Shown piece after piece: positions 6,772 to 30,604 of a stretch of 32,000 bases of DNA (its first letter is position 1; the number at the start of each line of letters is the position of its first letter). Position numbers and translations under genes: made by a program. This stretch comes from Sulfolobus acidocaldarius DSM 639 (GTDB taxonomy: Archaea; Thermoproteota; Thermoprotei_A; Sulfolobales; Sulfolobaceae), in the NCBI RefSeq assembly GCF_000012285.1, contig NC_007181.1, positions 2,040,001-2,072,000 of the forward strand, in the 5' to 3' direction. Under the pieces are notes generated by a model. It ran no database searches and was not told the origin of the DNA. It saw only the letters and a program-made list of their open reading frames with translations.

Positions 6772-6824
6772 AATATTATTTTTTATAAAAAATTAAAAAG
6801 TCTTTATGCGGAGTATTGAAAAAA

Positions 6825-8798: not shown

Positions 8799-8877
8799 TA
8801 TTATTAAATAAATAAATAAGATATTAAAGTTTAGTTTGAACCACAAAACTAATTAAGTTAAGCAGAAAATATTAATT

Positions 8878-10613: not shown

Positions 10614-10680
10614 GTTTAAGGAGCTATGAATAATAAAAAAACTAAATTATCACTTTTTATCTATCTAAAAAGGAATAATA

Positions 10681-12348: not shown

Positions 12349-12411
12349 AATATATACTACATTTAGCAATTTTATATATTTAACTTGAAATACAACTTAT
12401 AACTTTCGACA

Positions 12412-13620: not shown

Positions 13621-14565
13621 TTATCCTAGGAAGGACGTCACTAAGTTAATAAATTGAGTAGGATACTGGTATATCAGTCCATGACCCGCATCAGGGCTAA
13701 AGATATATAACTGCGCATTTGGTATGTTCTCAGCTAAATACTGACTATTCTGAGGAGGCAGTAAAAGATCACTGTCACCTCCGATAACAAGTGTTGGTGC
13801 TGTGATGTTTTGCAGTTGCCCTACTGAGTTAAACGTAGCTAAAGCATTAGTCTGCTTTAAAACACTTGTATAACTTATCGGGTATTTCTCCAGTGTAAAT
13901 AAGACATACTTTGCTACGTCTGGGTGAGCCTGTAACCAATCACTTGGCACTAAATAAGGAATTATAGTCTCGACCGTAACAGTTGGATCAGAAGCTGTAA
14001 ATCCAGTTATAATAGATTGAGGGGAGACTTTCGGAGGATACAGGTAAATATTAGGTGCAGTACATAGCAATACTAGTTTATTTACATAGCTCGGGTAGTC
14101 AATGGCTATCTGTTGGGCTACAAAACCACCCATTGACCAGCCTAGAACATTCAGGTTAGAGTAACCTAGATAGTTTAGTAGACCTATGGTATCACTGGCA
14201 TATAACGGAATTGTATAAGTTAATGCATCATGAAGAGGATCTTGACCTACTGTACCACTCCTTCCTGTACCCCTATTATCGAAAATTATGACCTCATACT
14301 GCGACGCTAAACCATTTATAATTATAGGTCCCCAACTCTCTAAGTTTCCCAAATATCCCATTATCATTATAAGTGGTTCTCCACTCCCATATATCTCATA
14401 GTAAATATGTATATTGTTTACTGGAGCCCAGCCGAACTCCTTGGGAACCAAGTTAGAGTAATTTATTTGAGGCGGTGTCTGTGATATACTTAACGGGATT
14501 CTCGTAGCTAATGCGCCTGCTATAGCCCCAGCACCTAAAATCTTAATAGCGTCTCTCCTGTTCAT
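13621..14565 (-). CDS. Exported alpha/beta-fold hydrolase (esterase/lipase-like) with a twin-arginine signal peptide
   Basis: The N-terminus 'MNRRDAIKILGAGAIAGALA' is a Tat-type signal. 'GWSMGG' is the nucleophile elbow (GxSxG). 'GGDSDLL' and 'DAGHGL' are candidates for the Asp and His of the catalytic triad. Confidence 0.8.
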   Translation of the reverse strand: MNRRDAIKILGAGAIAGALATRIPLSISQTPPQINYSNLVPKEFGWAPVNNIHIYYEIYGSGEPLIMIMGYLGNLESWGPIIINGLASQYEVIIFDNRGTGRSGTVGQDPLHDALTYTIPLYASDTIGLLNYLGYSNLNVLGWSMGGFVAQQIAIDYPSYVNKLVLLCTAPNIYLYPPKVSPQSIITGFTASDPTVTVETIIPYLVPSDWLQAHPDVAKYVLFTLEKYPISYTSVLKQTNALATFNSVGQLQNITAPTLVIGGDSDLLLPPQNSQYLAENIPNAQLYIFSPDAGHGLIYQYPTQFINLVTSFLG

Positions 14566-14662
14566 GGCTGATTAAAGATATATCTAAACTAGTTTTTAAA
14601 GTTTTGTCATAAAGTTTCAGAATTTAGTAAAATAATTTCATTTGACTTAAAAATTCAGGGTA

Positions 14663-16171: not shown

Positions 16172-16354
16172 ATTTATATCATACTAAAAAATAAGTTTAA
16201 AAATGTTGGTGAAAATATATTGCGCTATTTTATTACCTTTATAAATTTTACACCAGAATGAAGTTTTTTAACTAGTTTCATAAAAAGCTCGAGACAGGAA
16301 AAACAGTAAGAAGAAAAACACTCTCACTTAAAAAGTAAAAACACGTTCCTTTAG

Positions 16355-18994
16355 CTATGGGAAGTAACTGTATGGTATATACAGTGACAGATATGGTACG
16401 TGTAATGATAGTCCAAGGGCATTAAGAGTCGAGTTGATTAATGTAAGCCTCGAGTTATAGACCGTTGTACTAGATAGATATACGTCAGACCCTGATATTG
16501 TTTGAGTAGAACCCGAGATCGTTGTACCTTGAGAATGCAACTGTGAATTACTTACGCCTATGGTATCACCATTTATGTTACTGTTCATCAAGTAGATCTG
16601 ACTACTGCTTATATTCTGCTGGGAGTTAGATATAGTTGATCCTGTGGCGTTTAATACAGAGCCAGATACGAACTGATTCGAGTTAGATATAGTTGAACTG
16701 ACTATATTTATTGTAGAACCTTGAGCGTTAATCGTAGACCCACTAATGGAGGAGCTTGTTAGGTATACATTCGAATTGGTTATGTATTGTTGTGAATTAG
16801 TTATTTGTGAATTGTAAGCCTGTAAAGTGGAGCCTGAGAGGTATATCTTGGAGCCTGATATTATTGTAACCACATTTAACAGTTTCGAGTTGGATATGTA
16901 AGCGTTAGTGTTTGTTAAGGTCTGCTTTGAGTTTGATACAGTGGTGGATCCTGAAATGTATAACGTGGAGCCCTGAATGTTCTGTGTAGTACTAGTTATT
17001 GTTGAACCTGTGGCGTTTAACGTGCTATCGCTTATGCTAACAGTAGACGAACTTATTGTCGAGCTAGACAAGGATATGAATGAGCCTCCACTTACGGTCT
17101 GAGTTACACCTGAAATGGTTGAGCCTGTAACATATAGTTTTGTACTGCTAAAGACAACATTTCCGCCATTTATCTGAGAGTTACTGAGGTAAATTGTCGA
17201 GCCCTGAATGTTCTGATTACTATTGGTTATTGTTGAACCTGAGGCAGACAGAGTAGACCCTACCATGTTTACGTTCGAAGAGCTTATTTGGGTATTAGTT
17301 AATGACACCATTGAGTTACGTATATTTTGTGTTACTCCCGTAATTGATGAACCACTCAGATAAAGATTAGTCCCTGTAATATTAGCTACTCCACTTCCAC
17401 TACTAGATAATTGCGAATTGGTCAAATAGACTGTTGACGATTGAATATTTTGGTTACAGTTTATTATGGAAGACCCTTGAGCGTTTAGTACAGAGTTGGA
17501 GAGGTAAATGTTTGTAGATGATATTGTGGAATCCACAACACTACTCTGAGAGTTTATGATTTGCATTAATGAGTTCACTATATTTGAGTTGATTATGCCT
17601 ATGTTTGAGTTTGACGTATACAGGTTTGAGTTAGATGACTTCAGAACTACTTGGGAGAATTTTGAATTACTTACATATGCTGTTGAGCCTATGAGGGACT
17701 GAGTTGAACTTAGAATAGTCACGTTATTGGCATTTATAACAGTGCTCTGGGCTGTTATAGTTGAACCAGATATAACAGTATTCTTTAGGTTAACTCCTGA
17801 ACTGTATATATTTTGAACGGAATTTTGTATAACAGTATTCACAGCACTTAAATTGGAGTTCTCAAGAGTTATCTGAGAGTTGTATATTTTCGAGTTAACT
17901 AGATCATTCACAGAATTAGTTATAGTAAAAGTGGAACCGTATAGGTCAGCAACAGCATTCTGAAGGTTAGAGTATATCACCTGAGCTGTGGACGAACTTA
18001 TATTCTGCACAACATTCATCAATGTTGAGTGATCAAGTTTTATGAAAGATTTAGACGCACCGACAAATGTATTAATGATGTTAGTCTTTTCCAAGTTTAG
18101 GGTAGAGGAATCATTGGCATACTGTTTTACGTTTTGTACAGTGGTACCTACTGAAGTTAGGGTGGTGTTTGACAAGTAGAGTGAGTCTCCATCTAGTAAC
18201 CCTCCGTTCGTTAATACTGACGAAGATATAATGCTGATGGAACTATTGTAGAAGTCCACATTATTTAGATAGTTTACAGTATTCCGCAACAGGAAATTAG
18301 ACATATAGAAATTATCATTTGTTAAGTTAAACGTGTCCTTAATATTTGGAACGTTAACTAGGTAAATATCACTAGACGTGATCTGTATGGAGTCATTGAA
18401 GTTAATTGTATTGGTCAAGTATAATTTTGAAGAGTAAACTTTCTGGTCTGACGAGTTTATTGAGGAACCGAACAGTTTTAACTGGCTATTATAAACCGTA
18501 AAAGCATCTCCTATTAATGATGTATTTTGTAGTGTTAAGTTGGATCTTTGGATGTTTTGTATTGAATTCCTTATTGAACTATAATACAAGAACAGACTAT
18601 CGTTGTTCAAGTTAAACTGTGAATTAGCAAAAACTGAATAGTTTGCAATGACTTTAGTGTTATTGAAAACACCCCTAGTAATTGATATTAATGAACCTAC
18701 TTGGACTGCAGTAGAGTTACTAATCCCAAAGCCATCTGCGAATATACTAGAGTTGTAGATGTAAATTTTCACATTTATAAAACTGCTATTGTATGTGTAG
18801 AGTATTGAATTATAAACATATAGTATAGCATTAGTTAACGTTGAGTTGTATAGCCTTTGGACTGAGTTCTTTATGTAGAGTATGGTAATTGGTGTGTTTT
18901 TGGGAGTTTGAGCAGTGGTCATTGTTCCGGCAGATACTAGAGTAATTAGTAATATAAGTCCTATAATTAAACCTAATTTATTTATTTTGTTCAT
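16355..18994 (-). CDS. Large secreted Ser/Asn/Thr-rich repeat protein, beta-solenoid-like, almost free of charged residues
   Basis: An 879-codon open frame carries the signal peptide 'MNKINKLGLIIGLILLITLVSAGT'. The C-terminal two-thirds is built from modules of about 19/38 aa such as 'GSTITNSNQNIQGSTIYLSNSQINGGNVVFSSTKLYVT'. There are dozens of N-x-S/T sequons and no C-terminal TM segment. Confidence 0.6.
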   Translation of the reverse strand: MNKINKLGLIIGLILLITLVSAGTMTTAQTPKNTPITILYIKNSVQRLYNSTLTNAILYVYNSILYTYNSSFINVKIYIYNSSIFADGFGISNSTAVQVGSLISITRGVFNNTKVIANYSVFANSQFNLNNDSLFLYYSSIRNSIQNIQRSNLTLQNTSLIGDAFTVYNSQLKLFGSSINSSDQKVYSSKLYLTNTINFNDSIQITSSDIYLVNVPNIKDTFNLTNDNFYMSNFLLRNTVNYLNNVDFYNSSISIISSSVLTNGGLLDGDSLYLSNTTLTSVGTTVQNVKQYANDSSTLNLEKTNIINTFVGASKSFIKLDHSTLMNVVQNISSSTAQVIYSNLQNAVADLYGSTFTITNSVNDLVNSKIYNSQITLENSNLSAVNTVIQNSVQNIYSSGVNLKNTVISGSTITAQSTVINANNVTILSSTQSLIGSTAYVSNSKFSQVVLKSSNSNLYTSNSNIGIINSNIVNSLMQIINSQSSVVDSTISSTNIYLSNSVLNAQGSSIINCNQNIQSSTVYLTNSQLSSSGSGVANITGTNLYLSGSSITGVTQNIRNSMVSLTNTQISSSNVNMVGSTLSASGSTITNSNQNIQGSTIYLSNSQINGGNVVFSSTKLYVTGSTISGVTQTVSGGSFISLSSSTISSSTVSISDSTLNATGSTITSTTQNIQGSTLYISGSTTVSNSKQTLTNTNAYISNSKLLNVVTIISGSKIYLSGSTLQAYNSQITNSQQYITNSNVYLTSSSISGSTINAQGSTINIVSSTISNSNQFVSGSVLNATGSTISNSQQNISSSQIYLMNSNINGDTIGVSNSQLHSQGTTISGSTQTISGSDVYLSSTTVYNSRLTLINSTLNALGLSLHVPYLSLYIPYSYFP
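16417..17557 (-). repeat. Intragenic degenerate tandem repeats (coding) within the 879-aa ORF; boundaries approximate
   Basis: The exact 17-mer gagccctgaatgttctg occurs at 16968 and 17199. The exact 16-mer gttattgttgaacctg occurs at 16995 and 17226. Both pairs are 231 bp (77 codons) apart. cctgtggcgtttaa occurs at 16641 and 17007, 366 bp (122 codons) apart. Confidence 0.7.
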
Positions 18995-19229: not shown

Positions 19230-19847
19230 TTAAACTTGAATTCTTGCATTTATTTTCCTTGCAACGTCTGCGAATATAAGAGCAGTATTAGTATATTTTC
19301 CTAGTTCTGACAGGGAGCCCTTCTTAATTTTTATTATACCACCTAACAGCGCCAATGATGCGTCCAGTTTTCCCTCAATTATTTTAACCCAATCTTGATA
19401 TCTAGCCTCGAGTATGACATCTGCACTTACATTTAGTATATCTACATAGAATTCGGTTGCGACACATTTTCCCTTATCTAGAATCAATTTTACAGCTCCA
19501 GAGCTCGAATTATTAATATATCCGTTCTTAATATCTTCTGGTAATTTCCTTCCTGTAATATTTTCCAATGCCTCCATAACAATTTTCCTATCTTCAGGTG
19601 GTACTGTTGGTGACAGTAACTCAGTTGCCTGCCTAATCAAGTCTTCATTTAGAACACCTAGAGAAATAGCTACACCCTTTACTACAGCAGCCCTTACATT
19701 CTCTGGCGCTTCTACTCCGACAAACAGAATTGAGTTCCATTTAATGTTCCTTGCTCCCTCTAAAAATTGCTTATTTTCATTTAATGACCTACAAAACTCT
19801 TGAGCCCATTCCTTGCTGGGAAACAAAAGTTTATTCTCCTCTCCCAT
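19230..19847 (-). CDS. SCP2 (sterol-carrier-protein-2)-like lipid-binding domain protein, paralog A
   Basis: The C-terminal 'YQDWVKIIEGKLDASLALLGGIIKIKKGSLSELGKY' matches the SCP2 signature (W..i..Gkl....A.m.Gklki.G.....l). It is homologous along its length to the ORF at 23298..23792, apart from an insertion of about 40 aa. Confidence 0.65.
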   Translation of the reverse strand: MGEENKLLFPSKEWAQEFCRSLNENKQFLEGARNIKWNSILFVGVEAPENVRAAVVKGVAISLGVLNEDLIRQATELLSPTVPPEDRKIVMEALENITGRKLPEDIKNGYINNSSSGAVKLILDKGKCVATEFYVDILNVSADVILEARYQDWVKIIEGKLDASLALLGGIIKIKKGSLSELGKYTNTALIFADVARKINARIQV

Positions 19848-19996
19848 ATTATATCAGTGTGATTTCAATAAATAAATATATATAAAAATCTTTTCTAAAA
19901 ACATTAAAATTATGCCTTATAATTCATTTGTCTTTGTAGATATAACGATACCAAAAGGCTTATATTTGATCAGTAATGAAGAATTAAAAGATAAAA

Positions 19997-21196
19997 ATGG
20001 TTTTACCATTTAACACATTGGAAGTGTACAATGTAAAGGTCTCAGAGAATCATGAACTCTTCAGAAAGGCAGTGAGAGAGTTCATGGAAAGAGATGTAGC
20101 GCCAATTGTGGAAAAAGGTGAAAAGGAAGGAAAAGTTCCTGAGAACGTCTTAGAGAAAGCTAAGGAATTAGGATTGTTTGGAATAAGCGTTCCTCAGGAA
20201 TACGGAGGACAAAGTGGAGACATGTTAATGAGCACAATAGCCGTAGAGGAAATGTCGAGGGTCTGGCCTTCCTTTACGGCGAGAGTAACAGTAGGGAACC
20301 TGTTCATGACTCCAATACTACTATTTGGTAGTGAGGAGCAGAGGAAGAAATATGTTACACCTGTTGCGAGGGGAGATAAGGTAGCTGCATTTGCAAATAC
20401 TGAACCACAAGCAGGAAGTGATGTTGCAGGAATACAGTCCACAGCAAAGAAAGTAGATGGTGGATATGTTTTAAACGCAAGGAAGATATTCATCACCAAT
20501 GGTGGTATTGCTGATTACTATGTTGTCACTGCAAGGACTTCACCACCTGAACCAAATGCGAGGTGGAAGGGAATATCAATGTTCATAGTAGAGAGAGAAT
20601 GGAAAGGAGTAAAAGTACTAAACAGAATTGAGACCCTAGGTTTAAGGGCATCTAATACTGCTGAGCTAGCATTTGAGGAAGTTTATGTTCCCCAAGAAAA
20701 CTTAGTAGGAGAGGAAGGCTCTGCATTTAAGTACGCAATGACGACCTTTGATGTTTCGAGAGTTGGTGTTGCTGGACAAGCCTTAGGTGTTGCCCAAGCT
20801 GCATTGGAGAAGATGACAAACTACTCAGTGCAGAGAAGTGCTTTCGGCTCTCCACTTTTAGGATTCCAGATGGTTCAAGAGAAAATAGCAGAAACATTAA
20901 CAGAAGTAAACGCAGCAAGACTATTAACATACTGGGCTGCGTCTCTCATAGACCAACGCAAAGTAGACGAGGGAATAGTTGCCGCATCTATGGCTAAGTA
21001 TTTTGCAACTGAGGTTGCAGAGAGGGCTGCCATAAGGGCTATAACTGTACACGGTGGATATGGTGTAGCAACTTCGACTGGTGTCGAGAGACTACTTAGA
21101 GACGTTGAGGTCATGAAGATTTATGAAGGGGCAAACGATATACAGAAATTAGTCGTATTAAAGGAGACAGCTAGAAGACTTCTAAAAGTGCTTTAA
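19997..21196 (+). CDS. Acyl-CoA dehydrogenase (FAD-dependent)
   Basis: The 399-aa size is typical for ACADs. 'AFANTEPQAGSD' and 'FITNGG' are present, and the C-terminal 'IYEGANDIQ' holds the catalytic Glu (YEGTxEIQ-type). Confidence 0.9.
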   Translation: MVLPFNTLEVYNVKVSENHELFRKAVREFMERDVAPIVEKGEKEGKVPENVLEKAKELGLFGISVPQEYGGQSGDMLMSTIAVEEMSRVWPSFTARVTVGNLFMTPILLFGSEEQRKKYVTPVARGDKVAAFANTEPQAGSDVAGIQSTAKKVDGGYVLNARKIFITNGGIADYYVVTARTSPPEPNARWKGISMFIVEREWKGVKVLNRIETLGLRASNTAELAFEEVYVPQENLVGEEGSAFKYAMTTFDVSRVGVAGQALGVAQAALEKMTNYSVQRSAFGSPLLGFQMVQEKIAETLTEVNAARLLTYWAASLIDQRKVDEGIVAASMAKYFATEVAERAAIRAITVHGGYGVATSTGVERLLRDVEVMKIYEGANDIQKLVVLKETARRLLKVL

Positions 21197-21220
21197 ACGC
21201 TTTATATACCAATTCCTCAG

Positions 21221-21226
21221 TTTTTT
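21221..21226 (+). terminator. Oligo-T tract downstream of the acyl-CoA dehydrogenase; candidate archaeal terminator
   Basis: A T6 run starts about 25 nt after the stop at 21196, within a pyrimidine-rich stretch (cagttttttattcctatcttcttttt). Confidence 0.3.
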
Positions 21227-21331
21227 ATTCCTATCTTCTTTTTAATTTATTGACGAAAAAAGCAACTTTTTAAAGGAGTTAAAGTTATTAGCCATTTTAC
21301 CATCCTTAAATCGAAAAGAGGTAGAATAAGT

Positions 21332-23251
21332 GTGAAAGTAGTTGTAATAGGTTCTGGAGAGATGGGACATGGAATAGCTGAAGTAATGGCGATATATAAA
21401 AACGAAGTTACCCTAGTGGATATAAAAGACGAGATACTGGACAAGGCAATCTCTAAGATTAGGGAGAGTTTAGATAGGTTAAAGAAGAGGGGCTCAATTG
21501 AAGAGGAGCCCGAGGATATACTAAAGAGGATAACAAAGTCAATAAACCTTGAAGAAGCAGTTAAAGACGCTGATCTTGTAATAGAGGCAGTTCCTGAAAT
21601 AGTCGACCTAAAACAGAACATTTTCAAGCGACTAGATCAATTCACAAAGCCAGATGCTATTCTCGCTACTAATACGTCAAATATTAGGATTAGTGAGATC
21701 TCTAAATTTGTGAATAAGAAGGATAGAGTAGTTGGAATGCACTTCTTCAACCCACCGGTACTTATGCAGTTGGTTGAAATAATAAAAGGACCAGATACCA
21801 GTCCTGAAGTGGTTCAGAAGCTCTACGAAATAACTAAACAGATCGGTAAAACACCTGTAATCGTGAATAAAGATACTCCAGGATTTATAGTGAATAGGAT
21901 CAATGCAGCTGAAAGCTTATTCATCTGCCTAGTTTTACAAAAGGGTATTAATTATGAGGAAGTGGACGCTTACTTCAGATCTCTAGGTCTACCCATGGGA
22001 CCTTATGAGCTAATGGATTATGTTGGATTAGACATTGTAGCCCATAGCCTAGAATATTTTGCAAAAGAAATATCTCCTGAATATGGGAAATGTACAAAGA
22101 TTAAAGAGATGGTAAATAACGGACTGTTGGGAAGGAAAAGTGGAAGAGGATTTTACGATTGGACTAAGGGGAGACCCCAGATTAATGCTAAGCAAAATCC
22201 AATAATTGATGTGAATGACTTGCTAGCAATAGACATAAATGAAGCCTCAAAATTACTCGAGGATAATGTCGCTACACCAAATGACATTGAAACGGCAGTA
22301 AAGTTAGGTATGAACAGACCCTTCGGTCCAATAACTGTAGCTAAAAGTGCAGATTTAAATGATGTGAAGAGCAGACTTGAAAGAATATCAAGTGAATACG
22401 GAATTACAATTTTCCAACCAACGGACTCCATAAAGACAGGTAAACTCAAGGAACTACTTGAGGGCGAGAAAAAGGAGGAGAAGAAGGAATTTGAAACACT
22501 CAACGTGAGCAAGGAAGGAAAGGTTGCTATTGTTAAGCTGAATAGACCTAAGTTGAACTTGATAAATTACACCCTGCTGGACGAACTGGATAGATTACTG
22601 ACAGAACTCTGGAATGACAGATCAATTAATGTGATCTTGATCACTGGAGAAGGACAAAACTTCTCAGGCGGTGCAGAGCTCTCTGCCCCTATCACAGATC
22701 AAGTACAATTCCTTGAGTTAGTGAGGAAAGGAGAGAGGACTTTCAAGAGGTTAACTGAGATTCCTAAGATCGTCATTGCATTTGTTAAAGGCTATGCTCT
22801 AGGGGGAGGCTTTGAGTTATCTTCCTACTGTGATCTACGAATAGCAACTGAGAATGCTGTGTTTGGTTTCCCTGAGACTGGTTTGGGTTTAGTACCAGCA
22901 TGGGGAGGTACTCAGCGACTGCCTAAATTAATTGGAATTTCCAGGGCTATGTATCTAATACTTACTGCCCAAAGAATATCCGCAAAAGAAGCACTAGAGT
23001 ATGGTTTGGTTAATAAGATAGTTAAGGACGAAAATGAAGCATTAGAGTTTGCAAAGGACCTGTCTGAGAGAATAGCACCTATTTCTGCCATGTTGGCTAA
23101 AAGGTTAATTAACAGGGGTAGTGAGGTACCAATTGATGTAGGTCTAGAGATGGAATCCATAGCGGGAGGATTACTATTTACAACTGAGGATTTAAAGGAG
23201 GGAATTGTAGCCTTCTTCTCAAAGAGAAAACCAGAGTTTAAAGGAAAATAG
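21332..23251 (+). CDS. Bifunctional 3-hydroxyacyl-CoA dehydrogenase (N-terminal) / enoyl-CoA hydratase (C-terminal), paralog B
   Basis: The GTG start is preceded by GAGGT. Motifs are the 'VVVIGSGEMGHGIAE' Rossmann fold, 'ITGEGQNFSGGAEL', 'GGGFELSSYCD' and 'FGFPETGLGLVPAWGGTQRL' (crotonase). Confidence 0.85.
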   Translation: MKVVVIGSGEMGHGIAEVMAIYKNEVTLVDIKDEILDKAISKIRESLDRLKKRGSIEEEPEDILKRITKSINLEEAVKDADLVIEAVPEIVDLKQNIFKRLDQFTKPDAILATNTSNIRISEISKFVNKKDRVVGMHFFNPPVLMQLVEIIKGPDTSPEVVQKLYEITKQIGKTPVIVNKDTPGFIVNRINAAESLFICLVLQKGINYEEVDAYFRSLGLPMGPYELMDYVGLDIVAHSLEYFAKEISPEYGKCTKIKEMVNNGLLGRKSGRGFYDWTKGRPQINAKQNPIIDVNDLLAIDINEASKLLEDNVATPNDIETAVKLGMNRPFGPITVAKSADLNDVKSRLERISSEYGITIFQPTDSIKTGKLKELLEGEKKEEKKEFETLNVSKEGKVAIVKLNRPKLNLINYTLLDELDRLLTELWNDRSINVILITGEGQNFSGGAELSAPITDQVQFLELVRKGERTFKRLTEIPKIVIAFVKGYALGGGFELSSYCDLRIATENAVFGFPETGLGLVPAWGGTQRLPKLIGISRAMYLILTAQRISAKEALEYGLVNKIVKDENEALEFAKDLSERIAPISAMLAKRLINRGSEVPIDVGLEMESIAGGLLFTTEDLKEGIVAFFSKRKPEFKGK

Positions 23252-23297
23252 AACTTTTTTGATAATTTTTTAGATAAAAAATAAGAAAATAAAAACC

Positions 23298-23792
23298 TTA
23301 AGCTAATATCTTGGACTTTATTTTCCTGCTCATGTTCGACATTATAACTGCAGCATTGGTGTATCTAGCCAACTCTGTTAAACTACCTTTCTTAATCTTT
23401 ATTGAACCTCCCAATAACGCGACAGTAACGTCTAATTTACCTTGGATGATCTTTAACCAAGTATCGTAAGGAGCCTCTAATATCAGTGAACCCACAACCT
23501 TTGACATGTCCGTATGAAACTCCGTGCCTAAACATCTACCCTCTTTAATGTTTAGTTTTATTGCACCAGCAGTTGAGTTAAAGTCTACCGAATCAGCTTT
23601 AGCTTCTCCCTTCTTGTACATCTCTATTAGTGTCGCTCTTACTTTTTCAGGAACATTTGTCGATACTAGAACCACAGAGTCCCATGGTGCAGTCTTAGAG
23701 GCTTCATAGTACTCTTTACTTCCGTTAAGTAGTTTACACCACTCATCTGCCCATTCCTTACTTGGAAATAGATACTCTTGTGTTTGAGACAT
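23298..23792 (-). CDS. SCP2-like lipid-binding domain protein, paralog B
   Basis: 'YDTWLKIIQGKLDVTVALLGGSIKIKKGSLTELARY' matches the SCP2 signature. The N-terminus 'LFPSKEWADEWCKLLN' parallels paralog A ('LFPSKEWAQEFCRSLN'). I prefer the ATG at 23792 (MSQTQEY) over the track start at 23840. Confidence 0.65.
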   Translation of the reverse strand: MSQTQEYLFPSKEWADEWCKLLNGSKEYYEASKTAPWDSVVLVSTNVPEKVRATLIEMYKKGEAKADSVDFNSTAGAIKLNIKEGRCLGTEFHTDMSKVVGSLILEAPYDTWLKIIQGKLDVTVALLGGSIKIKKGSLTELARYTNAAVIMSNMSRKIKSKILA

Positions 23793-23981
23793 GTTCAAGA
23801 TATATAAATACATATTCTTATAAAAAATTTGTCCTAACATTAATTAATCAATACAAGAAAATTAGGTGGACTGGAGTAAAGACAGAAATAAAGGAAATAT
23901 TCCTTAATTTTTATTGACTAATAAATATTAAACGATTTTTCAAAAAAATTTTTATATCAGGATTTTAAAGATATATCGTTA

Positions 23982-23990
23982 GAGGAGGTG
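23982..23990 (+). promoter_or_regulatory. Strong Shine-Dalgarno sequence (GAGGAGGTG) for the R2lox-B gene
   Basis: GAGGAGGTG ends 8 nt upstream of the TTG start at 23999. TATA-like tracts lie further upstream (about 23949-23977). Confidence 0.5.
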
Positions 23991-23998
23991 CGTTTTTA

Positions 23999-25036
23999 TT
24001 GGATAAACCAGTAGAAATAACCCCAGACGGTAAGGTAGTTAGGAAAAGCTACTCTTCAGTAAAGAAGGGAATAGATTGGAACTCTTACCCCATGAGATTA
24101 TGGGCAAAATCTAATGAACTATTCTGGTCTCCGTTACAATTTAAGGAACTAATACAACAGGACAAGCAAGATTGGGAGACAATGAGTGAATCAGAAAGGG
24201 AGATATCTGAATACATTGCAACAGCGTTTTCCGCAGGAGAGGAGGCAGTATCTAGATATTTAGCGGAGCTAGTAATAGCTTTAGATGAGTTAGGATACAC
24301 TGAAGAAGTATTATTCCTTAATCAATTCCAGCAGGAGGAAACCAGACATACAGATGCTTTTAGGAGGTGGATGGACTCCATAGGTATGGATAAGGACACT
24401 GAGAAATGGACCACAGAAATTAATCCATCTTACTATGAGCTTTTCTACGTTGCATTACCCTCAGCCGCTTATGGAGTTAAGGCAAATCCATCTCCAGAGA
24501 GTATATTAAGATTTACTGCTACATATATGTTCTCGATAGAGGGTATAGCTGCAGAAACTGGATTTTACTTCTGGAGAACTATGTGGGAAAGGGGTAGACA
24601 TCTAAAAGGTATTTACGAGATTGTGAAAAGAGTAGCCGCTGATGAGTCTAGACATTTAGCGTTTGGGACTTACCTTACAACTATGCTAATAGGTGAAGAC
24701 CAATCCCTATACGATAAATTCTTAGAGTACTTCAATTATGCAGGTGGTTTAGCTGTAAGGCTGATTGGAACAATAGTGGAGCAACAGGTAAACAAATGGG
24801 AACCATACAAGGAGAAATGGGGAAGATATTTCGAATGGGTATATAAGGAGAACGGTCTAGGTTCACTGGTAGATTACGCTGCAAAAATGGTCCAGCACAG
24901 GCTATTCTACGTAAATAGGCTAAGGAACGCTAATAGAGAGAAGCTAAGATACATGCCATTAAACGAAGCTGCTCCAGTGATAGAGAACTTCGATACTGTA
25001 GAGAAATACCTTACTCCTCAGTATGATCCCGAATAG
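23999..25036 (+). CDS. R2-like ligand-binding oxidase (R2lox)-type di-metal carboxylate protein, paralog B
   Basis: TTG start. The ligand set is 'AGEEA' (E81), 'QEETRH' (E114/H117), 'SIEGIAAETGF' (E181) and 'ADESRH' (E216/H219). Phe121 sits at the radical-Tyr position. V84 and Y176 (E-5) are present. By eye it is only distantly related to paralog A. Confidence 0.75.
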   Translation: MDKPVEITPDGKVVRKSYSSVKKGIDWNSYPMRLWAKSNELFWSPLQFKELIQQDKQDWETMSESEREISEYIATAFSAGEEAVSRYLAELVIALDELGYTEEVLFLNQFQQEETRHTDAFRRWMDSIGMDKDTEKWTTEINPSYYELFYVALPSAAYGVKANPSPESILRFTATYMFSIEGIAAETGFYFWRTMWERGRHLKGIYEIVKRVAADESRHLAFGTYLTTMLIGEDQSLYDKFLEYFNYAGGLAVRLIGTIVEQQVNKWEPYKEKWGRYFEWVYKENGLGSLVDYAAKMVQHRLFYVNRLRNANREKLRYMPLNEAAPVIENFDTVEKYLTPQYDPE

Positions 25037-25116
25037 AAAAATTCATTTTTATAATAGAATTTTTTCTCTTAAACCTTAAGTAATATTTATTACCATAACA
25101 AATTATACTTAATTTC

Positions 25117-25809
25117 ATGCTAAAAAGAATCTTCAAAATGAGTACTGAAGATTCTCCTATAAGTGAAGTAAATCCATTAAAATTGCTTCCACCAATTACA
25201 GAGGAGAAATATAATGACTATGATGGAATAGGGCTCTTGAGTATTAAGAGGTTCTCATTACTTTACACCATTTCATTTTTTGTAATCATAGCAGGATTAT
25301 TAGGAACATTGACATCAATTCCAGCCTTTCCCACACCCTTATTTTTCATAATACCTGTGGTCTCATTAATCTTCGTTATAATTACGGCTATAGGATTTCT
25401 CCTAGGTACAGCGTCAATAAACGTCCTGAGTATAGGATTGACAATCTTAGGCAAGATAAAGAAGGATTATAATAGCAGATTAGTGGAGTTTTCGATCTTA
25501 ACTCCATTAGTAACAGGTATAGGTCTATTAGTCTTCTTAATACTGGGCTTGTTAGGATTAAACCCAGTCCCAGTGTTAGAACTAAATATTGTAATGGCTA
25601 TAATAGGAATTGCTATAGCTGTATTCTTCATAGGAATGATAGCAGCGGCAATAAAGATGTGGAAGCTGGGGAAAAGGTACGAGAGCTGGGGTTTGAGAAT
25701 AGGTGGAATTTTCCTTTTCCTTCTCCCTCCTTTAGGTGGAATATTAACATACATTTTTTCAAGTAGAGCAGCTAAGAAGGTAAAAAGAACCGATTGCTTC
25801 CTTGCTTAG
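25117..25809 (+). CDS. Polytopic integral membrane protein, function unknown
   Basis: There are five to six hydrophobic segments, for example 'ISFFVIIAGLLGTLTSI', 'LFFIIPVVSLIFVIITAIGFLLG', 'LVTGIGLLVFLILGLLGL', 'IVMAIIGIAIAVFFIGMIAAAI' and 'IGGIFLFLLPPLGGILTYIF'. A TATA-like box lies about 30 nt upstream of 25117. An alternative ATG lies at 25138. Confidence 0.6.
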   Translation: MLKRIFKMSTEDSPISEVNPLKLLPPITEEKYNDYDGIGLLSIKRFSLLYTISFFVIIAGLLGTLTSIPAFPTPLFFIIPVVSLIFVIITAIGFLLGTASINVLSIGLTILGKIKKDYNSRLVEFSILTPLVTGIGLLVFLILGLLGLNPVPVLELNIVMAIIGIAIAVFFIGMIAAAIKMWKLGKRYESWGLRIGGIFLFLLPPLGGILTYIFSSRAAKKVKRTDCFLA

Positions 25810-25813
25810 GTGA
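25808..25813 (+). promoter_or_regulatory. Shine-Dalgarno sequence (AGGTGA) for the CoxG-like gene; indicates an operon-internal start
   Basis: AGGTGA lies 6 nt upstream of the ATG at 25820 and overlaps the stop of the membrane-protein gene. Confidence 0.5.
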
Positions 25814-25819
25814 TAGAAG

Positions 25820-26245
25820 ATGTCGTTAAATAGGATATGTGGAAGGTTCTCTGTACTGGATCTGGTTAAAACATTGCAGTTCATTGGAGATCAGAACAAC
25901 TTCGTGGGCTGTATACCAAATATAGTTAGTGCGAATGAGAACACATTTAAAGCGAAAGTAAAGGCATTGGGGCTACCATTAACCGTGAAGGGAGAACTTT
26001 ATAAGTACGAAATATCCCCAGAGACGTTAATACTCACAGTTGGACTACGAGTCAAAACTACAGGTGCAGTTATAGATATAATTACAAGGAGTAAGGTTAA
26101 AGAAGATGGCAGTCAAGTCATATGGGATACTCAATATAATATCGCGGGACCCCTTAAAATACTTTTAAAGCCTTTGTTAGAGAGTGTGACAGAGCAGACA
26201 GTGGTGGACACTATAGAGTGTATTAAGCTGAGAACTACTTCTTAA
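25820..26245 (+). CDS. CoxG-like / SRPBCC-superfamily hydrophobic-ligand-binding protein, paralog A
   Basis: The size (141 aa) and N-terminal pattern 'GRFSVLDLVKTLQFIGDQNNFVGCIPNI' resemble the CoxG family ('f.v..p.e.v..fl.d...la.ciPg'). It is homologous to 29481..29891. Confidence 0.55.
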   Translation: MSLNRICGRFSVLDLVKTLQFIGDQNNFVGCIPNIVSANENTFKAKVKALGLPLTVKGELYKYEISPETLILTVGLRVKTTGAVIDIITRSKVKEDGSQVIWDTQYNIAGPLKILLKPLLESVTEQTVVDTIECIKLRTTS

Positions 26246-26294
26246 GTTAGTCTTTTGAGAAAAATATATATGTTTGTTTTTTAAATATAAGTTA

Positions 26295-27353
26295 ATGAAA
26301 GCCGCAATATTTAAGGGAGCAAACGCACCGCTTCAATTAACGGATATCCCTAAACCGTCCCCAGGTGAAGGAGAGATCCTAATTAGAGTAGCATCTACAG
26401 GTGTTTGCCATTCCGATATACACCACATGAAAGGTGAGCTACTTGGATTTATGCCACCCGAGGGGTTTATTCTTGGACATGAAATTTCAGGATGGGTAGA
26501 AGATTTTGGACCGAATGTAACAAACCCCTATGGACTACAAAAAGGAGACCCTGTAATAGTATCATGGATTGTACCATGTGGAAAGTGTAGATATTGTGCG
26601 TCTGGTAAGGAAAACTATTGTAACAACGTAATGATGAAGATGCCGGGTTTGATCGGAATAAATGGGGGTCATGCTGAATACACTTCAGTCCCTGAAATAG
26701 CTGTAATACCGGCAAGAGAAATAAAAGATGTGATTGCCTCTTCACCTGTTTCATGTGCATATGGTACAGCTTACGGAGCACTTAAGACTGCTGGTGCTTC
26801 TGCAGGTCAAAGTGTAGTTGTAATAGGTACAGGTGGTGTAGGTTCCGCTGCGATTCAGTTAGCCAGTGTAATGGGGCTATATCCAATAATTGCAGTGGAT
26901 GTTGTAGACAGTAAATTAGCGAAAGTAAAAGAATTGGGAGCGACTCATACTGTTAATCCTAACAAGGAAGACCCTGTTGGCAAGATAACTGAGATATTAC
27001 CAGAAGGAGCGGATATAGTTTATGAGACTAAACCCAATCCAGATTTGCAAATAGCCTTTAACGTCGTGAACAAGTCGGGAACAATGGTTGTTACCGGACT
27101 AGGGAATGCCACATCAAGTACAATTAACTTAATGACTAACCTCTTTGTGGGAAGGGGACTTAAAGTTGTGGGAAGTTTAGGTTATAGACCCAGGATTGAC
27201 TTACCAGAGTTGGTAAGGATGGTAGCATCGGGTAAGCTCGACGTTAAAAAACTTGTGACTCACGTGTATAGACCAGATGAGATAAACACTGCATACGAAA
27301 ATCTTGAGAAAGGACTGCATTTAAGAGCAATAATTGACTGGACTAAGCTGTAG
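26295..27353 (+). CDS. Zinc-dependent alcohol dehydrogenase (MDR family)
   Basis: 'GVCHSDIHHMKGE' and 'GHEISGWV' carry catalytic Zn ligands. 'CGKCRYCASGKENYC' is a structural Zn loop and 'VIGTGGVGSAAIQLA' is GxGxxG. I prefer the ATG at 26295 (MKAAIFKG), which has a TATA-like box about 28 nt upstream. Confidence 0.85.
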   Translation: MKAAIFKGANAPLQLTDIPKPSPGEGEILIRVASTGVCHSDIHHMKGELLGFMPPEGFILGHEISGWVEDFGPNVTNPYGLQKGDPVIVSWIVPCGKCRYCASGKENYCNNVMMKMPGLIGINGGHAEYTSVPEIAVIPAREIKDVIASSPVSCAYGTAYGALKTAGASAGQSVVVIGTGGVGSAAIQLASVMGLYPIIAVDVVDSKLAKVKELGATHTVNPNKEDPVGKITEILPEGADIVYETKPNPDLQIAFNVVNKSGTMVVTGLGNATSSTINLMTNLFVGRGLKVVGSLGYRPRIDLPELVRMVASGKLDVKKLVTHVYRPDEINTAYENLEKGLHLRAIIDWTKL

Positions 27354-27370
27354 GTAAGGGGTTTAATTCC

Positions 27371-27376
27371 TTTTTT
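27371..27376 (+). terminator. Oligo-T tract after the ADH; candidate archaeal terminator
   Basis: A T6 run sits within ccttttttcccttttcttctccctc, starting 18 nt after the stop at 27353. Confidence 0.3.
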
Positions 27377-27449
27377 CCCTTTTCTTCTCCCTCTAGTATT
27401 CTCATGTAAATTATGAAGATCCATATTTTTTAACACTATGAAAGACCTT

Positions 27450-27512
27450 AACTATTAATGCTAAAACTTGAACTATTAATGCTAAAACTTGAACTATTAA
27501 TGCTAAAACTTG
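27450..27512. repeat. Perfect tandem repeat, 3 x 21 bp (AACTATTAATGCTAAAACTTG)
   Basis: Read directly from the sequence: the units occupy 27450..27470, 27471..27491 and 27492..27512 and are identical. The repeat lies in the 389-bp intergenic region between the ADH and the acyl-CoA synthetase. Confidence 0.95.
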
Positions 27513-27742
27513 TGTTCATGTATAAGCACAATATCTAACATTTAAACTATCATTGAAAAATTTAAAGATGACACCTTTCCCCTTATATTTTTTTCAGAAA
27601 GGAATTATTAAATGTTTAGCTTAATTGTAGTGAATAAAATTGAGGGACTACACTAATTAAGTTGTTAAATAATTGATAACTTTGAAATTATTTTTGTGTT
27701 ATTAGATCATAAAGTTTTTTAACTACATAAAATATCATAATA

Positions 27743-29371
27743 ATGATGAGTTCCGGGTACTATAAATATCAGTTAACTATAGATAAATTTCTAGATAGTG
27801 GGGAGACGGTCTTTCCAACAAGAGAAATAGTTTACACAGATAAGAGAAGATATACATTTAAAAAATTTGCAGAGTCAGCTAAAATCTTAGCAAATGCCCT
27901 AAAGAAAATCGGTGTCAAAAAAGGTGATATAGTAGGTGTTATTGACTGGGATACAGATGTGTACATGCACCTATACTATGCTGTACCAATGATAGGAGCT
28001 GTACTGCACACAGTGAATCTACGATACCCTCCAGAACTAATTATAAAGACAATGCTACACGCTGAAGACAAATGGGTGATTATAAGGGACGATCTAATAG
28101 GACTAGTCGAGGATATTAAGAACTTTAACCCCAACATAAGGTTCATCATATATAATGACGACAAGGAGAAAATAAAAGTAGATGACAAGACCATAGATTT
28201 CTGGGACTTATTACAGGGAGAACCTAAGTATGATCCAGATGAAGAAGGACTAAAAGAAGATATGATGGCAACATTAATGTACACTTCAGGAACCACAGGT
28301 AATCCAAAGGGAGTGTGGTTCACCCATAGAGACCTAGTGCTTCATGCAATGGCTATGGGTACCATATCAAGGGCACCTCCAGTTGAGTTGACAACCAGAG
28401 ATGTTGTGATGAGCCTTGTACCAATGTTCCACGTGCATTCGTGGGGATTCCCATATGTTGCCTTAGCAAGTGGTCTTAAGTATGTGCTACCTGGCGTTTA
28501 CAACCCAGCAACCCAGTTGAAGTTGATAGCCAATGAGGGAGTAACTTTCTCGGCAATGGTTCCAACAATATTGTTCATGATACTAGCTCAACCAGATATT
28601 GACGATTATAAACCGTATCTAAAGAACTGGAAAGTTGCTATAGGCGGAGAAGCGCTTCCTGAGGGTTTAGCAAGGAAGGCTAGAGAATACGGTATCAAGT
28701 TGTATTCAGGTTACGGTTTGACTGAGACTTGTCCAGTTTTAACTGTGGCATACCATAATTCCATTGTGGAAAGTTTCGATGAAGAGAAGAAATTCGAAAT
28801 ACAGCTGAGTGCAGGAGTTCCAATACCAGGAGTAAAGCTAAGGATAGTGGATGAAGAGGGTAAAGATGTCCCTAGAGGAAAGATAGGAGAAATAGTAGTT
28901 AGAGCTCCATGGACAACAAGAGAATACTACAAAGACCCTGAAAAAACAGCCCAATTATGGAGAGGTGGTTGGTTACATACAGGCGATCTGGGATACATCG
29001 ACGAATATGGTTACTTACATTTAGTGGACAGGGAGAAAGATGCAATAAAGAGCGGTGGTGAGTTCATACCATCACTCCTATTGGAGACAGTCATATCCCT
29101 ACACCCAAGTGTGGCTGAGGTTGCAGTTGTAGGTATTAGACATGAAAAGTGGGGCGAAAGACCTGTTGCATTCATAGTACCTAACGGTCAATTTGATGAG
29201 GTAGAAATGAGGAAGTTCCTGATGAAAAAGGTGGAGGAAGGTAAGATACAGAAGTGGTGGATACCAGACAGGTTCTTCGTTGTGGAAGACATACCAAAGA
29301 CCTCAACTATGAAGGCTGATAAGAAATTGCTGAGAGAAATGGCGAGTAAAGAGCTCCAAAAACAAAAATAG
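27743..29371 (+). CDS. Medium/long-chain fatty-acid--CoA ligase (AMP-forming), paralog B
   Basis: Motifs present: 'MYTSGTTGNPKGVWFTH' P-loop, 'VPMFHVHSWG', 'GYGLTET', 'WLHTGD', 'IKSGGEFIPSLLLE' and 'PKTSTMKADK'. Confidence 0.9.
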   Translation: MMSSGYYKYQLTIDKFLDSGETVFPTREIVYTDKRRYTFKKFAESAKILANALKKIGVKKGDIVGVIDWDTDVYMHLYYAVPMIGAVLHTVNLRYPPELIIKTMLHAEDKWVIIRDDLIGLVEDIKNFNPNIRFIIYNDDKEKIKVDDKTIDFWDLLQGEPKYDPDEEGLKEDMMATLMYTSGTTGNPKGVWFTHRDLVLHAMAMGTISRAPPVELTTRDVVMSLVPMFHVHSWGFPYVALASGLKYVLPGVYNPATQLKLIANEGVTFSAMVPTILFMILAQPDIDDYKPYLKNWKVAIGGEALPEGLARKAREYGIKLYSGYGLTETCPVLTVAYHNSIVESFDEEKKFEIQLSAGVPIPGVKLRIVDEEGKDVPRGKIGEIVVRAPWTTREYYKDPEKTAQLWRGGWLHTGDLGYIDEYGYLHLVDREKDAIKSGGEFIPSLLLETVISLHPSVAEVAVVGIRHEKWGERPVAFIVPNGQFDEVEMRKFLMKKVEEGKIQKWWIPDRFFVVEDIPKTSTMKADKKLLREMASKELQKQK

Positions 29372-29480
29372 AGGAATTCACTATGTCTCAATTTTCTCCT
29401 AAACTAGACTTAGAATGTAGGTGTATTAATTTAGGAAAAACATATATATTAAGATTAGTAGAAAAATAAGGTGAGAATAT

Positions 29481-29891
29481 ATGCCTCAAAAGTTAAGTGG
29501 GAAATTTAAAGTGAAAGATCCAGCAAAGGCAGTTCAGTTCGCATCCAACTATTCAAACTTCATATCCTGCATACCTACTGCCAGGGACATAAAGGACAAG
29601 AAATTCAAACTAGATGCTACTGTAGGTGCAATGAAGGTCACTGTTGATGGTGAATTAATCGACTATAAGATAACAGAGAACGGATATGTGGCTACAGTAC
29701 AAATAAGAGGTCCTGGTGTCACAACAACCACAACCACCAAGAGTACATTAAATGGAGATGAAGTTACGTGGGAGGCTGAGTATAAGAATGAGGGCTCTAT
29801 GGTAGCGATGTTAGGAAACCTCCTCGATACTTCAGTTCAAACCATGATGAACCAGACTGCAGAGTGTATTAAAAACAAACTTAATAGTTAA
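29481..29891 (+). CDS. CoxG-like / SRPBCC-superfamily hydrophobic-ligand-binding protein, paralog B
   Basis: 'GKFKVKDPAKAVQFASNYSNFISCIPT' parallels 25820..26245. AGGTGA lies at 29469..29474, 6 nt upstream of the ATG. Confidence 0.55.
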   Translation: MPQKLSGKFKVKDPAKAVQFASNYSNFISCIPTARDIKDKKFKLDATVGAMKVTVDGELIDYKITENGYVATVQIRGPGVTTTTTTKSTLNGDEVTWEAEYKNEGSMVAMLGNLLDTSVQTMMNQTAECIKNKLNS

Positions 29892-30136: not shown

Positions 30137-30580
30137 ATGGTAAAAATAGGGGAAAAGGCACCTATATTTGAAGCTGTTACTGATAGTGGAGAGAGGATTT
30201 CATTAGCGGACTTTATTGGAAAATATAATATTGTACTCTACTTCTATCCAAAGGACGATACTCCTGGATGCACAACAGAGGCTTGTGCTTTCAGAGATAA
30301 CTGGGACTCGTTAAAAGGATTTGACGCAATGGTTATAGGTGTTAGTTCCGACGATACTAACTCACACAAGAAATTTAAACAAAAGTACAACTTACCGTTT
30401 ATCTTGGTAAGTGACCCCGACAAAAAGATAAGAGAAATGTATAACGCAAAGGGCTTTATCCTACCAGCCAGGATAACGTTTGTAATTGATAAAAAAGGAG
30501 TAATTAGACATATTTACAATTCACAGATGAATCCAGGTAACCATGTAAACGAAGCTCTAAAAGCACTTAAACAGATTAAG

Positions 30581-30604
<24 letters not shown>
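30137..30604 (+). CDS. bcp: Peroxiredoxin, Bcp/PrxQ type
   Basis: '[16 protein letters not shown]' contains the PxxxTxxC peroxidatic motif and a second Cys five residues later. The 155-aa size fits. Confidence 0.9.

Follow-up and report, generated by a model that had tools for sequence, protein, structure and literature searches.

Conserved linkage of SCP2-fold proteins with alcohol dehydrogenases and R2lox in archaea suggests a chain-oxidation module in a second acyl-CoA island of Sulfolobus acidocaldarius

A 32,000-nucleotide stretch of Sulfolobus acidocaldarius DSM 639 (contig NC_007181.1, positions 2,040,001 to 2,072,000; here called the window and numbered from its first base) covers saci_2202 to ∼saci_2228 at ∼38% GC and is a second lipid/acyl-coenzyme A (acyl-CoA) catabolic island of this organism, separate from the FadR-controlled cluster saci_1103-1126. 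Among its acyl-CoA enzymes, the window encodes two SCP2-like proteins (SCP2_A and SCP2_B), two R2lox proteins (R2lox_a and R2lox_b), and two CoxG-like proteins (CoxG_a and CoxG_b). An earlier prediction, made from this DNA alone (the original prediction), had read the three doubled families as two parallel lines of lipid handling. The linkage that is conserved in other genomes differs from the one proposed there and joins SCP2 to alcohol dehydrogenase (ADH) and R2lox, along with acyl-CoA dehydrogenase (ACAD) and acyl-CoA synthetase (ACS). With somewhat better than even confidence, we read the window as embedding a rearranged, partly duplicated copy of an archaeal module (SCP2-fold carrier, R2lox, and Zn-ADH, commonly followed by ACAD and ACS) that would work as a chain-oxidation route. 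The protein families and gene annotations were already known; what the analysis adds is a candidate R2lox partner and pathway.

A species-level genome scan from a five-sequence SCP2 alignment gave 38 loci, mostly from Thermoproteota, with some from Thermoplasmata, Marsarchaeota, and Myxococcota. At these loci the commonest SCP2 neighbor was an ADH, rather than R2lox or CoxG. An ADH of the Zn or Fe type or an aldehyde dehydrogenase (ALDH) immediately adjoins the SCP2-like gene in 21/28 loci with a called SCP2 open reading frame (ORF). Beyond these, the Zn-ADH lies one gene away in the Sulfolobaceae metagenome-assembled genome (MAG) L007, and a Zn-ADH lies directly downstream in L014, in which the SCP2 ORF was uncalled. 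ADH/ALDH genes occupied 23/56 SCP2-flanking positions versus 5/303 other ORFs (odds ratio, 41; Fisher p, 2e-16), the loci not being phylogenetically independent. Despite this nonindependence, the adjacency involves two unrelated ADH folds and ∼10 lineage/arrangement groups, which argues that function rather than inheritance explains it. Orthologues of the window Zn-ADH (56 to 74% identity) stand directly downstream of SCP2 in Pyrobaculum, Thermoproteus, and L008 and one gene further downstream in L007; more distant Zn-dependent medium-chain dehydrogenases/reductases (MDRs) occupy the same slot in L018, L019, L022, and L026. Fe-ADHs (PF00465, PF25137) neighbor SCP2 in Pyrodictiaceae, Desulfurococcales, Acidilobaceae, Thermodiscus, and others, and an ALDH does so in a Thermoplasmata MAG. 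Within 5 kb of SCP2, ACAD was the next most frequent neighbor, and 5 SCP2 loci had no ADH or beta-oxidation neighbor.

The Zn-ADH of the window (positions 26295 to 27353, plus strand; Pfam ADH_N and ADH_zinc_N) belongs to the orthogroup that is the most conserved neighbor of the SCP2 family. This orthogroup retains all catalytic and structural zinc ligands, and the nearest PDB relatives of the window enzyme are true ADHs (1rjw, 1llu, 1h2b, 2eer, and 1jvb). In Sulfolobus islandicus, an SCP gene adjoins a FadR-like TetR gene (PMC9976892). Taken together, the genomic neighborhoods suggest that stand-alone SCP2 proteins are alcohol dehydrogenase partners across Thermoproteota. Linkage in other genomes, which the original prediction had expected for its carrier genes, thus holds for SCP2 with lipid and acyl-CoA genes and holds only in part for CoxG.

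The second recurrent partner is R2lox. The closest relatives of SCP2_B (71 to 73% identity) include the gene that opens a one-strand string of SCP2, R2lox_a (72%), Zn-ADH (74%), ACAD (83%), and ACS (77%) in L007, and the same SCP2-R2lox-Zn-ADH-ACAD-ACS string, followed by an esterase, was found on metagenome contigs L049 and L050. In a second lineage (L008 and L045 to L048), SCP2 is followed by Zn-ADH and a convergently oriented R2lox, then by a metallo-beta-lactamase (MBL)-fold gene and an Fe-ADH. A metagenome scan from the R2lox side gave 31 loci, with SCP2 adjacent in 6/31; among these, L055 and L056 carry 71% orthologues of R2lox_b followed by SCP2 and MDR. The two families are also joined within single polypeptides. 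P0074 (452 amino acids [aa]), found on two independent contigs (L086 and L087, positions 203 to 1561), is a full-length SCP2-R2lox fusion consisting of an N-terminal SCP2 domain, a ∼30-aa linker, and a complete R2lox domain (NF006202, 406 bits; cutoff, 315). A third, partial example of the fusion lies at positions 1370 to 2186 of L084. In haloarchaea, R2lox genes are reported to be hexadecane induced and to be clustered with a sterol carrier protein (PMC9314684). The recurrent adjacency, the fusion protein, and the conserved Zn-ADH/ACAD/ACS context nominate SCP2 as an R2lox partner, together with a pathway.

Two further observations concern these fusions and their family. Downstream of the P0074 gene come genes for an MBL-fold (Lactamase_B) protein and a methyltransferase, and an MBL-fold gene also follows R2lox in L045 to L048. 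P0068, P0081, and P0093 are wax-ester synthase/diacylglycerol acyltransferase (WS/DGAT) proteins whose C-terminal domain belongs to the SCP2-like family. Fatty alcohols and acyl-CoA are the substrates of WS/DGAT enzymes, and these fusions tie the SCP2-like family to fatty alcohol and acyl-CoA chemistry.

By Pfam, the SCP2 assignment is the weakest of the three family calls. SCP2_A (∼saci_2216; positions 19230 to 19847, minus strand; a stand-alone protein of 205 aa) scores 17.6 bits against Pfam SCP2 (PF02036), below the cutoff of 21.3, and SCP2_B (saci_2219; positions 23298 to 23792, minus strand; 164 aa, with a start codon backed by orthologues) gave no match to this model. By sequence, both match the Thermus SCP2 structures 1wfr/2cx7 (E values of 2e-12 for SCP2_A and 2e-10 for SCP2_B). 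An AlphaFold2 (AF2) model of SCP2_B (pLDDT, 79) has 2cx7 as its best Foldseek match (E, 5e-11; TM score, 0.84 to 0.86), and its later matches are all SCP2 folds, including yeast, archaeal, human, and insect SCP2, UbiJ-SCP2, and the alkylsulfatase SCP2-like domain. An exhaustive profile search retrieved 324 cluster representatives of the family, mostly of 130 to 150 aa, and 30/40 aligned sampled members matched Pfam SCP2 (best E, 2e-13). From these sequence matches and the predicted structure, we regard the SCP2 assignment as secure. The SCP2-like and CoxG-like labels of the original prediction thus survived HMM and structure searches that could have placed these proteins in unrelated folds, and all six genes of the three families lie where it had placed them. 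Its remark that carriers are absent from the textbook scheme of beta-oxidation takes no account of SCPx and MFE-2 in peroxisomes; the MFE-2 SCP2 domain (1ikt) is itself among the structural matches.

The R2lox assignments are stronger. R2lox_a (∼saci_2220; positions 23999 to 25036, plus strand, TTG start) and R2lox_b (saci_2212; positions 12558 to 13550, plus strand) both exceed the cutoff (194) of NF006200, the NCBIfam equivalog for R2lox, with scores of 477 and 464 bits, respectively. Both keep the six metal ligands (GEExV, ExxH at residue 114, Yx4EG, and ExxH at residue 216), leaving the predicted Mn/Fe site intact, as well as the Val/Tyr pair of the ether cross-link, with Val at +3 from the first Glu and Tyr at -5 from the third. 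They share 32% identity (E, 1e-57). Identity of the pair with the crystallized SaR2loxI (6qrz) and SaR2loxII (7qbk) was considered and rejected, the matches reaching just E values of 1e-54 to 1e-65; R2lox_a matches these entries no better than 1e-54. S. acidocaldarius therefore has at least four R2lox paralogues: R2lox_a, R2lox_b, SaR2loxI, and SaR2loxII. R2lox proteins are reported to copurify with C16/C18 hydroxy fatty acids (PMC9314684), and GkR2loxI is described as an alkane monooxygenase (PMC10867098).

Published expression data touch both families. In a 2024 chemostat RNA-seq study (PMC11486757), saci_2208, saci_2209, saci_2211, saci_2212 (R2lox_b), and saci_2219 (SCP2_B) rise with saci_2188 and saci_2232-2235 under nutrient excess. 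That report annotates saci_2212 as "ribonucleotide reductase small chain," saci_2188 likewise as R2, and saci_2219 as "sterol carrier protein." There, saci_2212 and saci_2188 are among the most upregulated genes and are read as ribonucleotide reductase (RNR) beta subunits reflecting a demand for DNA repair. This RNR reading was probably driven by misannotation.

Both CoxG-like proteins exceed the gathering score of Pfam COXG (PF06240; 22.2): CoxG_a (positions 25820 to 26245, plus strand; 141 aa) at 40.7 bits and CoxG_b (positions 29481 to 29891, plus strand; 136 aa) at 69.7 bits. They share 30% identity (E, 2e-22), and each gene has, as had been noted earlier, a GGTGA Shine-Dalgarno motif 7 to 8 nucleotides upstream of its start codon. 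The AF2 model of CoxG_b, the only one of the pair to be modeled, has high confidence (pLDDT, 92.5), consists of a beta-sheet and a helix at residues 108 to 135, and shows the SRPBCC helix-grip fold; its best Foldseek matches are 2ns9 and 8uds, namely, APE2225 (Pfam COXG) and Mycobacterium smegmatis CoxG. A polytopic membrane protein (positions 25117 to 25809, plus strand; ∼5 to 6 transmembrane [TM] segments by hydropathy and a weak DUF973 match) is encoded just ahead of CoxG_a, with a gap of 10 bp. These two genes also adjoin each other in L007 and L054 and overlap in L090. The neighbors of CoxG_b vary. Its 79% orthologue (L051) adjoins a Pyr_redox_2 flavoprotein and lies 3 to 6 kb from a CoxLSM-like Mo-hydroxylase and an AhpC, and a 69% orthologue also adjoins Pyr_redox_2. 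Homologues at 57 to 58% identity stand directly upstream of ACAD in TetR-type beta-oxidation clusters, while a 48% homologue adjoins a TetR gene with ACS, MDR, and a short-chain dehydrogenase/reductase nearby. In the window, no gene for a Mo-hydroxylase (CoxSML) or a quinone-reducing flavoenzyme adjoins either CoxG gene.

In S. acidocaldarius itself, the CoxG paralogues Saci_1119 and Saci_2031 anchor the soluble flavin adenine dinucleotide (FAD)-dependent glycerol-3-phosphate dehydrogenase (G3PDH) to the membrane (PMC11962113), and M. smegmatis CoxG is the membrane-bound, menaquinone-binding partner of the Mo-containing carbon monoxide dehydrogenase (Mo-CODH) (PMC12202499). Because characterized CoxG relatives anchor enzymes or bind quinone, membrane/quinone coupling is, by analogy, more likely than acyl carriage for CoxG_a and CoxG_b; the ACAD-adjacent CoxG_b homologues are compatible with either role. 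Most likely, then, these proteins would attach a soluble redox enzyme to the membrane or provide it with a route to caldariellaquinone, and they would not serve as substrate carriers of the SCP2 type. CoxG_a would act via the polytopic membrane protein. In the window, CoxG_b is followed by an AhpC/Bcp-type peroxiredoxin (positions 30137 to 30604), and AhpC-family genes are also present no more than ∼7 kb away from the L051 orthologue of CoxG_b and no more than 4 kb away from CoxG_a in L054; this proximity could be relevant to the O2-activating R2lox system, or it could be coincidence.

In the route that we favor, the SCP2-like protein would hold a poorly soluble long-chain aliphatic compound (an alkane, fatty alcohol, aldehyde, or hydroxy-fatty acid) and pass it to soluble enzymes. 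R2lox would then carry out an O2-dependent oxidation, most likely a hydroxylation, and the resulting alcohol would be oxidized by the Zn-ADH. The acid would be activated by ACS (positions 27743 to 29371, plus strand; Pfam AMP-binding and AMP-binding_C) and degraded by ACAD, by the fused 3-hydroxyacyl-CoA dehydrogenase/enoyl-CoA hydratases (HCDH/ECH), and by the thiolase and DUF35 proteins, whose paired genes lie in the other half of the window. The ACAD of this half (positions 19997 to 21196, plus strand; three Pfam ACAD domains) is the only one in the window and is followed by HCDH/ECH copy 1 (positions 21332 to 23251, plus strand; Pfam 3HCDH_N, 3HCDH, and ECH_1). The interleaving of the carrier genes with ACAD, a dehydrogenase/hydratase fusion, an MDR dehydrogenase, and ACS, as originally predicted, was borne out by Pfam. 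The folds, the family assignments, the paralogy, the conserved gene adjacency, and the fusions are observed; all ligands and catalytic steps we infer.

Several points weigh against this route. Within the window, no ALDH and no obvious reductase or ferredoxin for R2lox are encoded, and neither CoxG_a nor CoxG_b has a hydrophobic anchor by hydropathy. The nearest CoxG_b orthologues (79% and 69%) have a CoxLSM-like Mo-hydroxylase or a flavoprotein in their vicinity rather than acyl-CoA genes. The module is broken in S. acidocaldarius: SCP2_B is inverted, the membrane protein and CoxG_a stand between R2lox_a and ADH, and ACAD lies beside SCP2_A. Only the 6 of 31 metagenome R2lox loci mentioned above have an adjacent SCP2, many of the contigs being short. 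In the RNA-seq table, saci_2219 is listed with R2lox_b (saci_2212) and not with its divergent neighbor R2lox_a (PMC11486757). As for R2lox chemistry, Diamanti et al. saw no turnover of R2lox-bound fatty acids (PMC9314684), and the alkane-monooxygenase claim for GkR2loxI was based, as far as the accessible text of PMC10867098 describes it, on crude recombinant enzyme.

A more specific proposal is tentative, and we put its chances well below even: that the SCP2-like protein is the delivery partner of R2lox and forms with Zn-ADH, ACAD, and ACS an undescribed archaeal O2-dependent long-chain route into beta-oxidation, with CoxG wiring the dehydrogenases to caldariellaquinone. Candidate substrates in such a route could be alkanes, fatty alcohols, or even alkyl/isoprenoid chains from ether lipids.

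Slightly less probable than that proposal, and in our view unlikely, is that all three small-protein families act as general carriers that shuttle fatty acids or acyl groups between the membrane and the beta-oxidation enzymes, with CoxG resembling the DUF3211 carrier STK_08120. The SRPBCC helix-grip fold does have a ligand cavity, DUF3211 is a reported fatty-acid carrier (Miyakawa 2013, as cited in PMC7718255), and some CoxG_b homologues do sit with beta-oxidation genes, either directly upstream of ACAD (57 to 58%) or by a TetR gene (48%). Precomputed matches to PF11485 (STK_08120-like) were also present on the homologues P0164 and P0166; these were not reproduced on rescan. Membership of the window CoxG proteins in this family was rejected, neither CoxG_a nor CoxG_b giving a PF11485 match even at an E value of 10. 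The characterized S. acidocaldarius CoxG paralogues are instead membrane anchors (PMC11962113), and the closest CoxG_b orthologues occur outside acyl-CoA clusters.

The original prediction itself proposed two parallel substrate-specific lines, each with its own SCP2, CoxG/SRPBCC, and R2lox, kept since old duplications; we consider this improbable, at perhaps half the chance given to general carriers. Three families do occur twice each, and pairwise comparison bears out their divergence (SCP2, 36%; CoxG, 30%; R2lox, 32%). HCDH/ECH occurs twice (36% identity between copies) and ACS three times, R2lox paralogues have been suggested to differ in substrate specificity (Diamanti et al., PMC9314684), and orthologues of R2lox_a and R2lox_b each adjoin their own SCP2 and MDR in other genomes. 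The layout of the window speaks against two lines. All four SCP2 and CoxG genes fall in the same half (19 to 30 kb), and the region from 5284 to 12369 is a complementary beta-oxidation half. It holds an ACS (positions 5284 to 6771, minus strand), HCDH/ECH copy 2 (positions 6825 to 8846, minus strand), the thiolase saci_2209 (positions 8878 to 10065, plus strand), DUF35/ChsH2-OB (positions 10062 to 10613, plus strand), and a further ACS (positions 10681 to 12369, minus strand), all assigned by Pfam. PMC11486757 likewise gives saci_2208 as HCDH, saci_2209 as thiolase, and saci_2211 as ACS. The thiolase and DUF35 form the sole such pair in the window (8.9 to 10.6 kb), in the half opposite the sole ACAD (19 to 30 kb). 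A full round of beta-oxidation thus depends on genes from both halves. In addition, CoxG_a is paired with a membrane protein, whereas CoxG_b has variable neighbors.

The history of SCP2 also argues against two ancient lines. SCP2_A and SCP2_B share 36% identity (E, 2e-47), SCP2_A carrying a 41-aa insert, and a neighbor-joining tree places SCP2_A beside the Sulfolobaceae SCP2_B clade as its sister (bootstrap, 100). The exact SCP2_A protein occurs in S. acidocaldarius genomes only, where the order of the genes is the same as in the window, and no SCP2_A orthologue was found in the other species genomes scanned, though its sequence matches both scan patterns. SCP2_A thus looks like a Sulfolobaceae-internal duplicate, and of the claim of old, maintained duplications the divergence stands while the ancient line does not hold for SCP2_A. 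Each SCP2 gene is, as predicted, divergent from a catalytic gene (spacers of 149 bp between SCP2_A and ACAD and of 206 bp between SCP2_B and R2lox_a). The divergent SCP2_B/R2lox_a layout is particular to S. acidocaldarius, relatives having SCP2, R2lox, ADH, ACAD, and ACS on one strand. In the simplest history, an ancestral operon of this order would have been broken up in S. acidocaldarius; SCP2 would have been duplicated, with one copy, inverted, staying by R2lox_a and the other by ACAD; and the membrane-protein/CoxG_a pair would have been inserted between R2lox_a and ADH.

Least probable of all, and very doubtful, is that genome rearrangement in a region rich in paralogues brought these genes together without any functional coupling, with SCP2 and CoxG serving unrelated processes such as quinone/isoprenoid lipid handling in the manner of UbiJ-SCP2: UbiJ-SCP2 is among the structural matches, the S. 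acidocaldarius module is visibly rearranged relative to L007/L049, and the 5 SCP2 loci lacking ADH and beta-oxidation neighbors would fit, but ADH adjacency recurs with two nonhomologous ADH folds in many lineages, SCP2 is fused to R2lox and to WS/DGAT, and SCP2_B is coregulated with beta-oxidation genes (PMC11486757).

The remaining genes of the window frame the two halves. At its start lie sulfate-assimilation genes (positions 367 to 2437), Saci_2202 being a PAPS reductase and Saci_2203 an ATP sulfurylase (Wang 2019 supplement). A DUF6955 gene (positions 2434 to 2739) belongs to the sulfate-assimilation operon, overlapping the end of the gene for ATP sulfurylase, and is unrelated to the lipid genes. 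An MDR gene (start at 2988) and LplA (start at 4132) follow. At the far end, genes for 2-oxoacid:ferredoxin oxidoreductase subunits run from 30581 on the minus strand. Between the two halves stand an alpha/beta hydrolase (positions 13621 to 14565, minus strand; Pfam Abhydrolase_1) and two surface-type Asn/Ser/Thr-rich proteins recognized by sequence features (502 aa, positions 14663 to 16171; 879 aa, positions 16355 to 18994; both minus strand), together spanning positions 13621 to 18994. Both surface-type proteins have N-terminal signal/anchor segments and Asn/Ser/Thr-rich repeats; the 502-aa protein has a C-terminal Ser/Thr stalk and TM anchor in a SlaB-like architecture, and the repeats of the 879-aa protein are degenerate. 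In the Sulfolobaceae MAG L054, homologues of these proteins (31% and 45 to 49% identity) lie on either side of another R2lox paralogue and immediately before the membrane-protein/CoxG_a pair. The surface-type proteins may be part of the same system, with a role such as capturing hydrophobic substrates at the surface.

Among S. acidocaldarius strains, L002, L003, and L006 have ACS genes and thiolase called as split or length-variant ORFs (regions equivalent to 27743 to 29371 and 8878 to 12369), for instance, an ACS of 568 or 599 aa versus 542 and thiolase fragments of 50 to 147 aa. The split ORFs suggest that in some isolates portions of the island are frameshifted or pseudogenized, or else they reflect assembly errors.

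A perfect tandem repeat of three 21-bp units, AACTATTAATGCTAAAACTTG (positions 27450 to 27512; Tandem Repeats Finder [TRF] score, 126), is found in the 389-bp spacer between ADH and ACS, with the ACS start ∼230 bp farther downstream. Exactly three copies are present in 6/6 S. acidocaldarius strains; the repeat occurs nowhere else in the window, and none is expected by chance. It may be a regulator-binding array. No TetR gene was found among the Pfam-annotated ORFs of the window, and all 13 genes that respond to fadR deletion fall in saci_1103-1126. Identity of the window with that published cluster was rejected on the missing TetR gene and on gene numbers (2202 to 222x).

The physiological substrate and partner of R2lox have been a long-standing question since the family was defined, and Diamanti et al. 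proposed that identification of a partner may lead to the substrate (PMC9314684). With a concrete partner and pathway, R2lox function becomes testable. If the proposal is true, R2lox would gain its first physiological role, and this in an archaeon amenable to genetics: gene deletion and expression work is routine in S. acidocaldarius. The analysis also corrects a working annotation, that of saci_2212 and saci_2188, taken for RNR beta subunits in the transcriptome study, and adds two CoxG-like members in an organism in which two others are known membrane anchors.

Comparison with characterized systems places the window as follows. The original prediction called for a comparison with the fatty-acid cluster of S. 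acidocaldarius, missing that the window itself comes from this organism. The two loci have the same enzyme families (ACS, ACAD, HCDH/ECH, thiolase/DUF35, and esterase), and saci_1103-1126 also contains a CoxG paralogue, but the window is a different locus and has no TetR gene. With Thermus thermophilus TT1886/SCP2 (1wfr, 2cx7), the window proteins share the alpha/beta SCP2 fold, including a conserved C-terminal helix motif. The SCP2 domains of eukaryotic SCPx/MFE-2 are attached to beta-oxidation enzymes, whereas those of the window stand alone, and their recurrent partners are alcohol dehydrogenases and R2lox rather than thiolase.

The Pfam COXG family, the SRPBCC fold, and an operon-like position after another gene are common to the window pair, Saci_1119/Saci_2031, and M. 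smegmatis CoxG. Neither G3PDH, the partner of the former, nor Mo-CODH, the partner of the latter, adjoins the window CoxG genes. The window proteins consist of the SRPBCC domain alone with no predicted anchor, and CoxG_a has a conserved polytopic membrane-protein neighbor. MtR2lox, GkR2loxI, SaR2loxI, and SaR2loxII share the six metal ligands and the Val/Tyr pair with R2lox_a and R2lox_b; SaR2loxI and SaR2loxII are structurally solved and come from the same organism, whereas the window pair represents two further, uncharacterized paralogues. Finally, the haloarchaeal clusters also link R2lox to an SCP, and possibly to a "sterol-binding" protein of the START/SRPBCC type as well, and are likened here by description only. 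They are reportedly tied to the use of long-chain hydrocarbons; the window has no ferredoxin, and its module comprises Zn-ADH, ACAD, and ACS.

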